DNA of 64,000 nucleotides. Origin: Escherichia phage vB_Eco_F31. Below the pieces are notes generated by a model. The model was not told where the DNA came from. It saw nothing but the letters and a program-made list of their open reading frames with translations, and did no database searches. This document shows, piece after piece, positions 16,656 to 22,603 of the stretch. The translations under genes and the position numbers were made by a program. The number at the start of each line of letters is the position of its first letter. Position 1 is the first letter of the stretch. The stretch lies in sequence record OP870147.1. One strand, written 5' to 3'.

Positions 16656-18074
16656 TTATGGATATGTATAGATGATACCAGTTTCCAAAGCAGTTTTATG
16701 GATGATGTATCCATTACGTGATTCTTGAACATCAACTTCTGGATAATCTTTCATCATCTTCTGAAGAGTGTAACGATGCAGGTAGTATTTACTATCTGGA
16801 TCTTCAGTTTTCCAATCTTTACCTTCTTCAGTCATTTTTTGGATTTCATCCATAACCCACCATCCGCACCAGATGTAAGCTGAAGTACGATGTGGAAGAG
16901 GATGAACATAAGGTAATTCACCTTCTGGTTCTGGAGCAACTTTATCGGTTACCTGAACTTGACCTTCTGCTGTAATAGTTTTGCTATCGTAATCAGTTGC
17001 AGTAATAGTTGCAGTAACTTCAATAGTTTGACTTCCAATAGATGAGGTATCAACGGTATATACATTAGTTGACCCTTCTACAGGAGAAGAATCTTTCTTC
17101 CATGAATACTCAATTTGCGCTTCTTCTGGAGCATCAGTGACATTAGCGGTAAATGTAGCCGAAGCATCTTGCTGAACGTTAATAGAAGGAGGAGTCAATG
17201 TAACCCGTGGATTCATTGTCTTCTTATTAACCGTTAATGATACTTCATTCGAAGTAACTTCCTTTGCATCATAATCTGTCGCGGTTACTTGGGCTACACA
17301 CTTAATTCTTTTTACTCCACTTGTAGTCGGAGTATAGCTAAATGTAGAGTTAGTTTCTCCACCAACCTGTGAATCATCTACATACCACTGATACGTAGCA
17401 GACGCTCCAACCGGTTGAGAAGCTAAGGCAGCAGTAAATTGAACTGGGGTTCCAATTACTCCGGCTGAAGGACTATTGGGAGTTACTGCCAACGTAGTTG
17501 TCTGTGTCTTTTTATTAACAGTCAGTGACACTTCATTAGAAGTAACGCTTAGTGCGTCATAATCTGTTGCGGTTACTTGGGCTACACATTTAATTTTTTT
17601 AACTCCGCTTGTGGTAGGAGTGTAATTGAATGTAGCAGAAGTTGCTTCGCCAACAGGAGAATCATCTACATACCATTGATAAGTAGCGTTTGCGCCTGAT
17701 GGCTGCGAAGCTAAAGCGGCGGTAAATTCAATAGCTGTTCCTATTACTCCAGCGTCAGGGCTATTAGGAGTTACAGCTAAGGTAGTCGTTTGTGTCTTGT
17801 TTTGAACTGTGATAGTTGTAGTAGCTTCTGCTGTTTCAGCTTCAGCGTCTGGAACTGTATTTGTTGCAACTACTTTAATAGTCTTTTGACCGGCAGGTCC
17901 TTTTAGTACATAACTAAAAGTTGCTTCAGCTCCATCTTGTGGAACATCATCCACAGACCAAGCATATGTAATAGGTCCATCTCCAGTTTGACCACTGGGT
18001 GTAGCAGTAAACTGCTTAGTCTCATCTATAACTCCAGTAGGTGTTTTAGGAGTTATATCAACTGTAAAAGCCAT
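16656..18074 (-). CDS. hoc: highly immunogenic outer capsid protein Hoc, with four Ig-like domains
   Basis: 472 aa; position upstream of inh as in T4; repeated about 97-aa Ig-like units with conserved YxW...C...Y(D) pattern; two units nearly identical. Confidence 0.85.
   Translation of the reverse strand: MAFTVDITPKTPTGVIDETKQFTATPSGQTGDGPITYAWSVDDVPQDGAEATFSYVLKGPAGQKTIKVVATNTVPDAEAETAEATTTITVQNKTQTTTLAVTPNSPDAGVIGTAIEFTAALASQPSGANATYQWYVDDSPVGEATSATFNYTPTTSGVKKIKCVAQVTATDYDALSVTSNEVSLTVNKKTQTTTLAVTPNSPSAGVIGTPVQFTAALASQPVGASATYQWYVDDSQVGGETNSTFSYTPTTSGVKRIKCVAQVTATDYDAKEVTSNEVSLTVNKKTMNPRVTLTPPSINVQQDASATFTANVTDAPEEAQIEYSWKKDSSPVEGSTNVYTVDTSSIGSQTIEVTATITATDYDSKTITAEGQVQVTDKVAPEPEGELPYVHPLPHRTSAYIWCGWWVMDEIQKMTEEGKDWKTEDPDSKYYLHRYTLQKMMKDYPEVDVQESRNGYIIHKTALETGIIYTYP
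17220..17801 (-). repeat. tandem duplication (2 x ~291 bp) inside hoc encoding two near-identical Ig-like domains
   Basis: Protein units KTQTTTLAVTPNSP.AGVIGT...ATYQWYVDDS.VG...SGVK.IKCVAQVTATDYDA..VTSNEVSLTVNKK repeated back to back; nucleotide copies clearly similar on reading. Confidence 0.8.
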
Positions 18075-18802: not shown

Positions 18803-20317
18803 ATGACTGACATTAAAGTACATTTTTATGATTTTAGTCACGTGCGCATTGAATGCGACGAAAGTACGTTTTACGAACTTCGTGACTTTTTTAGCTTTGA
18901 AGCTGACGGGTATAAATTTAACCCAAAATATCGCTATGGGCAATGGGATGGTAGAATTCGACTTTTAGATTACAATCGTTTGTTACCATATGGACTTGTA
19001 GGACAAATAAAAAAGTTCTGTAACAATATGAGTTATTCTGTATGGATTGACCCTAAAATCTTTGAGACTGAAGACCTTACCAGGGAAGATTTTGACGCAT
19101 GGCTTTCTAAACAAGAAATTTATTCTGGCAACGCCAAAATTGAACCACATTGGTATCAAAAAGATGCAGTATATGAAGGACTAGTTAATCGTCGTCGAAT
19201 TTTAAACCTTCCGACATCAGCAGGTAAATCACTAATCCAAGCACTTTTAGCTCGGTATTATCTAGAGAACTATGAAGGTAAAATTCTCATTATCGTCCCT
19301 ACAACAGCATTGACAACCCAGATGGCTAATGATTTTGTTGATTATCGCTTGTTTAGTCATTCGATGATTAAGAAAATTGGCGGTGGTGCTGATAAAGCGG
19401 ACAAATCTAAAAACGACGCTCCAATTATTGTTGGCACATGGCAAACGGTAGTTAAGCAGCCTAAAGAATGGTTCTCTCAGTTCGGTATGATGATGAACGA
19501 TGAATGCCACTTAGCAACAGGCAAAAGTATTTCTTCAATCATCTCAGGATTAAATAATTGTATGTTTAAATTCGGTTTATCCGGCTCATTAAGAGACGGA
19601 AAAGCCAATGTAATGCAGTACGTAGGAATGTTCGGTGAAATCTTCCGTCCTGTTAGCACGTCTAAATTAATGGAAGATGGACAAGTAACTGAGCTTAAGA
19701 TTAATAGTATTTTCCTTCGTTATCCGGACGAATTCGCCACCAAATTAAAAGGTAAAACATACCAAGAAGAAGTTAAAATTATTACCGGACTAAAACGTCG
19801 TACAAAGTGGATTGCTCAACTTTCGGTCAAATTGGCTAAGAAAGACGAGAACGCCTTTGTAATGTTTAAACATGTTACACACGGTAAAGAAATATTTGAA
19901 GCTATTAAAGAGCTTGGATACGAAAAAGTTTATTACGTATCAGGTGAAGTTGATACTGAAACACGTAACGCGCTTAAAGTCATGGCAGAAAATGGTAAAG
20001 GCATTATTATTGTCGCATCATATGGAGTATTCTCTACTGGTATTTCAGTCAAGAATCTTCATCATGTTATTTTTGCCCATGGTGTTAAATCAAAAATTAT
20101 CGTACTTCAAACCGTAGGTCGCGTGCTTCGTAAGCATGGTTCTAAAGCTGTTGCTACAGTTTGGGATCTCATCGACGATGCAGGTGTAAAACCTAAATCA
20201 TTAAATACTAAAAAGAAGTATACTCATCTTAATTACTTGTTAAAACACGGTATTGATCGTATCCAACGTTACGCTGATGAGAAATTTAACTATGTAATGA
20301 AAACAATTAATTTATAA
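18803..20317 (+). CDS. uvsW: UvsW helicase (SF2, RNA-DNA/branch helicase)
   Basis: 504 aa; helicase motifs (Walker A-like PTSAGKS, DEAD-box-like MMMNDECH); size and position as T4 UvsW. Confidence 0.9.
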   Translation: MTDIKVHFYDFSHVRIECDESTFYELRDFFSFEADGYKFNPKYRYGQWDGRIRLLDYNRLLPYGLVGQIKKFCNNMSYSVWIDPKIFETEDLTREDFDAWLSKQEIYSGNAKIEPHWYQKDAVYEGLVNRRRILNLPTSAGKSLIQALLARYYLENYEGKILIIVPTTALTTQMANDFVDYRLFSHSMIKKIGGGADKADKSKNDAPIIVGTWQTVVKQPKEWFSQFGMMMNDECHLATGKSISSIISGLNNCMFKFGLSGSLRDGKANVMQYVGMFGEIFRPVSTSKLMEDGQVTELKINSIFLRYPDEFATKLKGKTYQEEVKIITGLKRRTKWIAQLSVKLAKKDENAFVMFKHVTHGKEIFEAIKELGYEKVYYVSGEVDTETRNALKVMAENGKGIIIVASYGVFSTGISVKNLHHVIFAHGVKSKIIVLQTVGRVLRKHGSKAVATVWDLIDDAGVKPKSLNTKKKYTHLNYLLKHGIDRIQRYADEKFNYVMKTINL

Positions 20318-20342
20318 GGGCTTCGGCCCTTAGGAGATAAAA

Positions 20343-20573
20343 ATGGTACTTGAATTTAAACAATTTTTATACGAAGCATCTATTGACGAATTCATGGGTA
20401 AAATTGCTAGTTGTCATACCCTAGAAGGGCTTGAAGAATTGGAAGCTTATTATAAGAAACGTATAAAAGAAACGGAATTAAAAGATACAGATGATATTTC
20501 TGTCAGGGATGCCTTAGCAGGTAAGCGTGCCGAACTTGAAGGCGATGATGAGGATGTGGAAGAAGACTTCTAA
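20343..20573 (+). CDS. uvsW.1: UvsW.1-like small acidic protein
   Basis: 76 aa immediately downstream of uvsW with AGGAG RBS. Confidence 0.6.
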   Translation: MVLEFKQFLYEASIDEFMGKIASCHTLEGLEELEAYYKKRIKETELKDTDDISVRDALAGKRAELEGDDEDVEEDF

Positions 20574-20574
20574 T

Positions 20575-20610
20575 TAAAAAAAGGCCCGACCTTTTTGGAA
20601 GGGCCAAAAA
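20575..20610. terminator. hairpin-forming A/T-flanked GC element between convergent uvsW.1 and the 55-aa ORF
   Basis: aaaaaaaGGCCCgacctttttggaaGGGCCaaaaa; can pair GGCCC/GGGCC or AAAAAGG/CCTTTTT. Confidence 0.4.
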
Positions 20611-20631
20611 CCATAGGCAAAAAAGGTAACA

Positions 20632-20799
20632 CTATAGTAAAAGTTGGGTTTCGTTCAATTGCTCTTCTGAACTTTCTGAAACCGGCAATTGTTGGACATA
20701 GTTATAACAAGGACCAGGATGTGCTGGGCCTTTGTCTGTTTCAACAACCAATGTAGAATCGATTGGAGTTTTACAGACAACACAAATCTTATCTGACAT
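20632..20799 (-). CDS. small Cys-containing hypothetical protein (55 aa), below the track's 60-aa cutoff
   Basis: Hand-translated: MSDKICVVCKTPIDSTLVVETDKGPAHPGPCYNYVQQLPVSESSEEQLNETQLLL; AGGAGG 7 nt upstream of ATG at 20799; CxxC...H...C pattern. Confidence 0.5.
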   Translation of the reverse strand: MSDKICVVCKTPIDSTLVVETDKGPAHPGPCYNYVQQLPVSESSEEQLNETQLLL

Positions 20800-20831
20800 G
20801 ATTGCCTCCTAAGTTGAAATTACATATCTAT

Positions 20832-21056
20832 TTATACAACTCTCATATGCATATCAATGCCCATATCTTTAGAATAAAAATATTCATCAAGATATCCGGC
20901 AAATTTTCCTTTAATATAAAGGACGTCTTCACCACACGGGTGGTCTGCCAGGATACGAATATCCTGACGACGTAGACGATACTTTTCCATTAAGAATTTA
21001 ATTTCAGTTTCAAATTCTTCGTCATTATTAAAGGCATCTTCAATTGAATAACGCAT
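20832..21056 (-). CDS. hypothetical protein (74 aa), downstream of uvsY
   Basis: ATG at 21056 overlaps uvsY stop; same strand operon position as T4 uvsY.-1. Confidence 0.5.
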   Translation of the reverse strand: MRYSIEDAFNNDEEFETEIKFLMEKYRLRRQDIRILADHPCGEDVLYIKGKFAGYLDEYFYSKDMGIDMHMRVV

Positions 21057-21469
21057 TATTGCCCCGCTTCAAATTCTCGCATATCCTGGATATGTTTAAG
21101 TGCAAAACTACGAGACTTAACTGCGTCAAGTGCACCACTACAGAACTCAAGTAAAATTCCCCAGTATTGTAAAGTAGTCTCTATTTTAAGCACATCTTTA
21201 TCTGCAGCCAGGACAGTTTTCATTTCAGATTTCTCGTATCGGTCCATACTGAATTCATCACCGTCACCTCGTCCCGAGTAGTAGTCTAATCTTGCTTTTA
21301 GAGCAGTTTTCTTCTGAGTCTCTATACGCAACATTTCTTTACGAATAAATGAGTGCTTACGTAGCCATTTGCTGTATAACTTAACATTATTCGCCGTCTC
21401 ATATTGCAACTTTGTCATATCAATAGCTAAGTCTGCGTCTAACTCTTCCTGTAAATCTTCCAGCTTCAT
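21056..21469 (-). CDS. uvsY: recombination mediator UvsY
   Basis: 137 aa, same length as T4 UvsY; MotA-box middle promoter motif upstream. Confidence 0.85.
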   Translation of the reverse strand: MKLEDLQEELDADLAIDMTKLQYETANNVKLYSKWLRKHSFIRKEMLRIETQKKTALKARLDYYSGRGDGDEFSMDRYEKSEMKTVLAADKDVLKIETTLQYWGILLEFCSGALDAVKSRSFALKHIQDMREFEAGQ

Positions 21470-22591: not shown

Positions 22592-22599
22592 TATTTATA
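22592..22599 (-). promoter_or_regulatory. T4-type late promoter (TATAAATA on minus strand) for gene 26
   Basis: Reverse-complement TATAAATA 19 nt upstream of gene 26 ATG, overlapping the plus-strand late promoter. Confidence 0.45.
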
Positions 22600-22603
22600 A
22601 ATA
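22596..22603 (+). promoter_or_regulatory. T4-type late promoter (TATAAATA) for gene 51
   Basis: Exact TATAAATA 18 nt upstream of gene 51 ATG; part of palindrome TATTTATAAATA. Confidence 0.5.

Follow-up and report, generated by a model that had tools for sequence, protein, structure and literature searches.

Identification of the T4 uvsY.-2 orthologue

In the window, that is the whole stretch of 64,000 nucleotides of phage DNA that was analysed here, the minus-strand reading frame at 20632..20799 is a genuine protein-coding gene, the last of the gp25-uvsY-uvsY.-1 unit; the overall explanation of it as the orthologue of T4 uvsY.-2 carries a probability of about 0.85. The coding sequence, as given in the list of open reading frames (ORFs), starts with ATG, comprises 55 codons followed by a TAG stop codon, and translates into a protein of 55 aa, MSDKICVVCKTPIDSTLVVETDKGPAHPGPCYNYVQQLPVSESSEEQLNETQLLL.

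The same 55-codon frame had been translated by hand in an earlier note on this DNA; the ORF list agrees with it, and the fragments quoted in that note match the translation. The ORF had there been called unlisted, which is true of the first-stage gene track, from which it is absent because of a cut-off of 60 aa. The novelty that the word implied does not stand, the gene having long been annotated. It is annotated as T4p185 in T4 and as APCEc01_110 in the nearest relative, the Mosigvirus APCEc01. The neighbours, on the other hand, are the ones that had been claimed, with uvsW.1 (20343-20573, plus strand; Pfam UvsW-1) on one side, and uvsY.-1 (20832-21056, minus strand) and, beyond it, uvsY (21056-21469, minus strand) on the other. 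Similarly, the proposal that the frame belongs to the small uvsY.-x genes described in T4 proved right, and the gene in question is uvsY.-2.

Specifically, the protein matches the Pfam family PF10886 (DUF2685) with 107.4 bits against a gathering cut-off of 25 (E 3.9e-31), the match covering residues 3-55 of its 55 residues and positions 1-55 of the model, and it matches phrog_1043 among the PHROG families (E 2.1e-29). It is 91% identical to T4 UvsY.-2 (T4p185, NP_049797.1, UniProt Q00778; T4 coordinates 114496-114663), from which it differs by five substitutions (T16A, A26V, V35I, Q36K and Q37E), none of them at conserved positions. The T4 protein has the same length of 55 aa, and its gene likewise lies between uvsY.-1 and the convergent uvsW, in the same orientation and with the same Shine-Dalgarno region, TATAAATA box and terminator hairpin. 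Current annotations of T4's relatives show the uvsW stretch as two genes, uvsW and uvsW.1, which is also the arrangement in the window. The window copy is the orthologue of T4 uvsY.-2, and no variant of it.

By all the tests run, namely score, coverage, signature residues and synteny, the protein is a full member of the DUF2685/UvsY.-2 family. In addition, the window is 99.5% identical across 1.2 kb to the Escherichia phages moha, APCEc01 and mar005P1, and the source phage is T4-like, of the genus Mosigvirus (RB69/APCEc01-like relatives of T4).

In conclusion, the hand annotation of this small ORF was correct, the gene was already known and the novelty is nil; the description of a CCHC zinc finger with a docking tail that is developed below is only a modest refinement of the 'DUF' label. 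As a discovery the gene carries little weight: T4 annotations have listed it for decades, Pfam and PHROG each have a family for it, and hardly any related genome lacks a call.

Distribution and gene order

A tblastn search retrieved 1249 phage records with uvsY.-2, almost all of which annotate the gene as hypothetical, DUF2685 or uvsY.-2. The hosts of these phages include Escherichia, Shigella, Klebsiella, Enterobacter, Yersinia, Salmonella, Citrobacter, Acinetobacter, Aeromonas and Vibrio. When 1.84 billion representative proteins were searched exhaustively with HMMER, only 31 clusters at 50% identity came up, nearly all of them at about 55 aa. DUF2685/UvsY.-2 is a small family restricted to T4-like phages. 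Conservation of the reading frame and of the Cys and His positions in related phages had been named in the earlier note as a check, and both are kept in the relatives.

The position of the gene is kept in at least nine genera (Tequatrovirus, Mosigvirus, Dhakavirus, Kanagawavirus, Jiaodavirus, Krischvirus, Tulanevirus, Hadassahvirus and Schizotequatrovirus). Specifically, uvsY.-2 is the last gene after gp25/uvsY and convergent with uvsW.1/uvsW in T4, APCEc01, JS10, PEi26, KpV477, Q7622, Phi1, 60AhydR15PP and one metagenomic contig. In V09, it lies downstream of uvsY and faces uvsW, and neither uvsW.1 nor gp25 is annotated. In Acinetobacter phage AbTZA1, it comes directly after gene 25, uvsY being absent from its usual slot between the two, and several other genes lie between it and the helicase gene. 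In the same phage (L005 2665-2832), the UvsY.-2 homologue is directly followed by a second Cys-rich ORF of 55 aa (…KKCGCPCHEQGVYISHFVPCCKY…).

The neighbouring uvsY.-1 is missing in JS10, PEi26, KpV477, Q7622 and Phi1, where uvsY.-2 directly follows uvsY, and it is much more dispensable than uvsY.-2. It has no Pfam family and is assigned to phrog_1541 only.

A fused form of 126 aa (P0028, phrog_26998) was found in frame and in the same genomic slot on the Logan contig SRR24752792_27035 (L011 487-867). Its extra N-terminal 73 aa start at the uvsY stop codon and fill the uvsY.-1 slot; BLASTP gave no alignment of this part with uvsY.-1 and no annotated function was found for it. As a clue to a partner of UvsY.-2 the fusion was set aside as uninformative, its N-terminal part being unrelated to uvsY.-1 and without annotated function. 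At the junction, an internal Shine-Dalgarno sequence and start codon (AAAGGA-N7-ATG) precede the uvsY.-2 part, and could still yield the short form.

Expression signals and expression in T4

Upstream of the start codon, an AGGAGG had been reported at a distance of 7 nt. The Shine-Dalgarno sequence is indeed present, at 20805..20810 on the minus strand, and the spacer to the ATG, CAATC, measures 5 nt instead of 7; this is a minor discrepancy, and 5 nt is still an optimal spacing. The gene thus has a strong ribosome-binding site to itself. T4 has AGGAGA where the window phage has AGGAGG.

A motif search located TATAAATA, the T4 late-promoter consensus, at 20829..20836 on the minus strand, overlapping the uvsY.-1 stop codon and 29 nt upstream of the ATG. 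The box ahead of uvsY.-2 is identical in T4 and present in AbTZA1, and it is probably a late promoter dedicated to uvsY.-2. Over the whole window, TATAAATA occurs in 18 copies against 7.1 expected, a count reached by none of 100 shuffles. At 22592-22603, in the gap that divides the divergent baseplate genes 26 and 51, a copy on one strand overlaps a copy on the other, in what looks like a back-to-back late promoter pair.

Downstream of the gene, RNA folding predicts an intrinsic terminator at 20576..20605 (minus strand), consisting of a GGCCC...GGGCC hairpin followed by U7, which a simple terminator scan had missed. A distance of 3 nt separates the end of the U-run from the stop codon of uvsW.1, the convergent gene, and the hairpin is conserved in T4 and Phi1. 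The 20570-20640 segment, which holds the terminator hairpin and a second hairpin upstream of it, folds with -19.4 kcal/mol (z = -2.8). In T4, the catalogued terminators include a uvsY.-2 terminator (PMC5931544). For the window phage, we infer both promoter and terminator activity from the sequence. The 3' UTR and terminator of uvsY.-2 (20576-20631, minus strand) also gave a match to RF02278, a Betaproteobacteria toxic sRNA, at 18.2 bits (gathering score 50; E 0.72), which is almost certainly a chance likeness of hairpin and U-run.

The T4 orthologue has been quantified by time-resolved LC-MS proteomics, in which it was classed as middle RNA and late protein (PMC9697503 supplement), and the proteomic detection that the earlier note had proposed as a check is available in this form. 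In addition, in a transcriptome-wide translational knockdown screen of T4 with dCas13d (CRISPRi-ART), uvsY.-2 was scored 'Semi-Fit', with values of about 2.2-2.3 for the RBS-proximal guides, and uvsY.-1, uvsY and uvsW were scored 'Not Fit' (PMC11879866). The statistic for uvsY.-2 in the pooled screen was modest (K-S p = 0.12), and the knockdown phenotype was confirmed with one individual guide and could be complemented in trans (PMC11879866). Knocking down uvsY.-2 translation lowers T4 fitness. A literature search on DUF2685 and its alternative names found no functional study beyond this knockdown screen.

Coding evidence

By itself, the length of the ORF is insignificant. In 64 kb of first-order Markov sequence simulated with the composition of the window, about 57 ATG-ORFs of at least 55 aa arise by chance, and a frequency of this order speaks for reading the frame as a chance ORF, with its conservation due to something non-coding, for instance an antisense signal or the region of the terminator. 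In the same simulation, ORFs of at least 55 aa with a perfect AGGAGG 4-18 nt upstream are expected 0.09 times per window, and uvsY.-2 is the sole such ORF in the window.

The comparison with T4 gave a Nei-Gojobori dN/dS of 0.06, with 16 synonymous and 5 non-synonymous differences, and 15 of the 21 nucleotide differences fall on third codon positions. Over 36 pairs from nine phages, with dS-saturated pairs left out, the ratio lies between 0.05 and 0.36. The gene is under strong purifying selection, and the ratio of 0.06, together with the full-length DUF2685 match, bears out the claim that the frame is a real coding one. The chance-ORF reading, to which we give virtually no credence, is contradicted by this ratio and by the clustering of the differences at third codon positions, as well as by the maintenance of the frame across genera down to 35% protein identity, the LC-MS detection of the T4 protein and the complementation of the T4 knockdown in trans. 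A scan of 20200-21200 against Rfam, in which nothing significant appeared, also argues against it, and we consider this reading excluded.

Predicted zinc-finger core

Two family alignments, of 33 and 36 diverse members, extend down to 35% identity with the window protein. In these alignments, C6, C9, G24, H27, G29, C31 and E42 are invariant, and K10 and L53 are at least 90% conserved. The window protein carries all the conserved residues, and the family signature reads C-x2-C-K ... G-x-x-H-x-G-x-C. From the invariant columns and the AlphaFold model, a CCHC zinc-finger core (C6, C9, H27 and C31) can be assigned to residues 1-38.

The AlphaFold2 model, which was built on the family alignment, has a mean pLDDT of 77, with 79-87 for residues 1-40 and low confidence in the tail. 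It is composed of a knuckle, a beta-hairpin (19-21, 24-26) and one helix (30-37), and contains no metal. This arrangement has the treble-clef layout, with a CxxC knuckle, a beta-hairpin and a second ligand pair at the N-terminus of the helix, and in structure comparison treble-clef zinc fingers are the only folds that the model resembles, the scores being weak. A search of a viral structure library with the model returned only uncharacterised family members. The CxxC...H...C arrangement had been called compatible with a small zinc-binding protein, and this judgement holds, in that the arrangement is the conserved core of the family and the predicted fold resembles only zinc fingers; metal binding is what we infer from these features.

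Profile searches point in the same direction. The PDB profile search found the C-terminal zinc finger of VPS39 (6ze9) with E 0.005 and a MYM finger with E 0.45; a search of the PDB with the single protein sequence yielded nothing but an artefact, a lysostaphin repeat in which no single stretch was significant. The weak Pfam matches of the family members are mostly to zinc-finger families, with zf-Vps39_C first (7 of the 36 members), and the others are DUF2175, an uncharacterised archaeal family (five members), and C1, LIM, RING-H2 and DUF2116 ('probable treble clef'), with one member each. Membership in zf-Vps39_C (PF10367) was considered and rejected, as no member scores above the gathering threshold: at a permissive cut-off of E up to 10, the best of the seven matches has E 0.0031, and these matches are at least 28 orders of magnitude weaker than those to DUF2685. 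The window protein itself has no match to zf-Vps39_C at E up to 10. The likeness may reflect remote similarity or convergence.

Treble-clef fingers such as those of TRASH/eL24, LIM, C1 and VPS39-C share with UvsY.-2 the CxxC knuckle, the beta-hairpin and the ligand pair at the start of the helix, and over 38 residues the UvsY.-2 model can be superposed on eL24 fingers at 1.5 A. However, no score against the treble-clef families reaches any threshold, and UvsY.-2 differs from them in its C-C-H-C ligands with an invariant HxGxC, in being a single stand-alone finger followed by an acidic tail, and in its confinement to phages. As modelled, UvsY.-2 falls in the treble-clef structural class. A single CCHC zinc site is very likely, because four invariant ligand-type residues coincide with a treble-clef topology and with exclusively zinc-finger neighbours. 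Residues 1-38 would form a single treble-clef-type zinc finger, in which C6 and C9 in the CxxC knuckle, H27 at the end of the beta-hairpin and C31 in the first turn of the only helix would together coordinate one Zn2+.

Acidic tail and possible mode of action

The remaining residues, 39-55, form an acidic tail that is predicted to be disordered and ends in ...LNETQLLL. Within the family, its C-terminal motif L-x-E-[TV]-[QE]-L-L-(L/M/I) is conserved, and its invariant Glu, E42, lies in a (S/T)-E-(S/N) patch ('SES' in the window protein). The net charge is -5 in the window protein and -6 on average in the family, with a range of -9 to -2 and never positive; the family mean is -4.4 for the tail alone and -1.7 for the finger core (range -4 to +1). 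Furthermore, the window protein contains no Arg and only three Lys, and in the family alignment K10 stands alone as a conserved basic residue, with no conserved basic patch.

These charges bear on the reading of UvsY.-2 as a nucleic-acid-binding zinc finger, either a small regulator of transcription or translation or a binder of DNA structures acting with UvsY and UvsW. Many treble-clef fingers, including the eL24 and GATA matches, contact nucleic acid, and the neighbouring genes encode recombination proteins. Nevertheless, the net negative charge of every member, which extends on average to the finger core, the scarcity of basic residues in the window protein and the lack of a conserved basic patch make this reading very unlikely. 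The all-acidic charge of the family argues against nucleic-acid binding and favours protein binding.

A conserved tail that is acidic and has a hydrophobic end is a typical docking peptide. The tail of UvsY.-2 is of this type, and a protein-binding module is therefore favoured. As a class, a small protein-binding module that docks through its tail has, judged from composition, conservation and analogy, a little less than an even chance of being the right description. In such a module, the C-terminal peptide, acidic and hydrophobic, would settle in a groove on a partner protein, in the manner of the tails of gp33, gp43, gp32 and E. coli YacG, and the zinc finger would either make a further contact or obstruct a site. 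UvsY.-2 would act from the middle to the late phase of infection, and would improve burst or plaque size as a non-essential protein.

Like the tails of T4 gp33, gp43, gp55 and gp32, that of UvsY.-2 consists of an acidic stretch and, after it, an extreme C-terminus rich in Leu. The clamp-binding tails read ...TLDFLL in gp33, ...SLDFLFG in gp43 and ...SLDFLY... in gp55, and the gp32 tail reads ...DLDDLLNDL in T4 and ...DLDDLLAGL in the window phage. Compared to the clamp motif (S/T)-L-D-F-L-(F/Y/L), the T-Q-L-L-L end of UvsY.-2 ([TV]-[QE]-L-L-Φ in the family) differs at the acidic and aromatic positions. When the 146 ATG-ORFs of at least 50 aa in the window were ranked with a family profile anchored at the C-terminus, the gp33 tail came second of 146 (z ~2.2), the first being uvsY.-2 itself and gp33 thus the best non-self match, and the gp32 tail came sixth. 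The likeness to the gp33 and gp32 tails is compositional and suggestive, a weak lead.

The clamp-binding tails of RB69-type and T4-type polymerases differ, and the uvsY.-2 tail is identical in T4 and the window phage. If the RB69/T4 difference holds here, co-variation of the tail with a clamp-binding partner is not apparent. The leading guess for the partner, a conserved phage protein of DNA metabolism or late transcription, is the gp45 clamp, and we regard it as doubtful. It appears quite unlikely that UvsY.-2 is a 'finger-and-tail' regulator whose C-terminus competes for the gp33/gp43 groove on gp45 or for the groove that the gp32 tail uses on its partners, whose finger contacts a second component, and which would tune the hand-over between recombination-dependent replication and late transcription or packaging. 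If this were true, a previously unrecognised small regulator would be added to the best-studied phage replisome.

Other possible functions

A small protein with an N-terminal zinc finger and an acidic C-terminal tail, of about 60 aa, is also found in E. coli YacG, the gyrase inhibitor (PDB 4tma/1lv3). Its tail anchors YacG on the target, and UvsY.-2 possibly works in the same way. In the manner of YacG, UvsY.-2 could inhibit or modulate a conserved host enzyme, for example gyrase or another DNA enzyme of the host, with the finger occluding an active or DNA-binding site and the tail as anchor, or could serve as an anti-defence factor. This too we hold to be doubtful. YacG differs in its C4 ligands, its Trp-containing tail and its target, host gyrase, whereas the third ligand of UvsY.-2 is His, within a CCHC set. 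Homology to YacG (PF03884) was rejected, the hhalign profile comparison giving a probability of 2.3% over only 10 aligned columns and no family member matching the YacG Pfam family at E up to 10. Moreover, the late timing of the T4 protein is unusual for host-directed or anti-defence factors, which are mostly early, and the genomic context consists of phage recombination and baseplate genes, with no early host-takeover cluster. The analyses presented here revealed no link of uvsY.-2 to a topoisomerase.

The baseplate genes of the same context raise the question of a late morphogenesis accessory, i.e. an assembly factor or minor component tied to genes 25, 26 and 51. The late-promoter consensus of its own upstream of uvsY.-2 and the late class of the T4 protein are compatible with such a role, as is the AbTZA1 copy, which directly follows gene 25 with no uvsY in between, so that the linkage to the baseplate genes is at least as conserved as that to uvsY. 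On the other hand, the linkage to the convergent uvsW.1/uvsW is equally tight, disordered tails of acidic character are more typically seen in regulatory proteins or in those associated with replication, and the RNA timing in T4 is 'middle'. We also know of no report of UvsY.-2 in T4 virions, which counts against this role, and overall we consider it unlikely.

The reading favoured here, that of a protein-binding module, is narrowed by the analysis to a predicted CCHC treble-clef zinc finger combined with a conserved acidic tail of the docking type, with C6, C9, H27, C31, E42 and the last five residues as the candidate key residues. The residual value of the gene is as a target for finding a function: it is among the few T4 genes without assigned function that are conserved across distant T4-like genera, its protein is detectable, and its knockdown is costly.

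Observations on neighbouring genes

The product of the convergent uvsW.1 (76 aa) also has a strongly acidic tail, which ends in an aromatic residue (...AELEGDDEDVEEDF) and resembles the partner-docking tails of SSB proteins. UvsY.-2 and UvsW.1 are two small proteins with acidic tails of the docking type, which face each other across one terminator.

In addition, the minus-strand ORF at 16656-18074 encodes a protein of 472 aa that contains tandem repeats, each about 95 residues long and almost identical to the others (…TTLAVTPNSP.AGVIGT..FTAALASQP.GA.ATYQWYVDDS…). Because its position adjoins inh and uvsW, the product is presumably a Hoc-like outer capsid protein with duplicated Ig-like domains.
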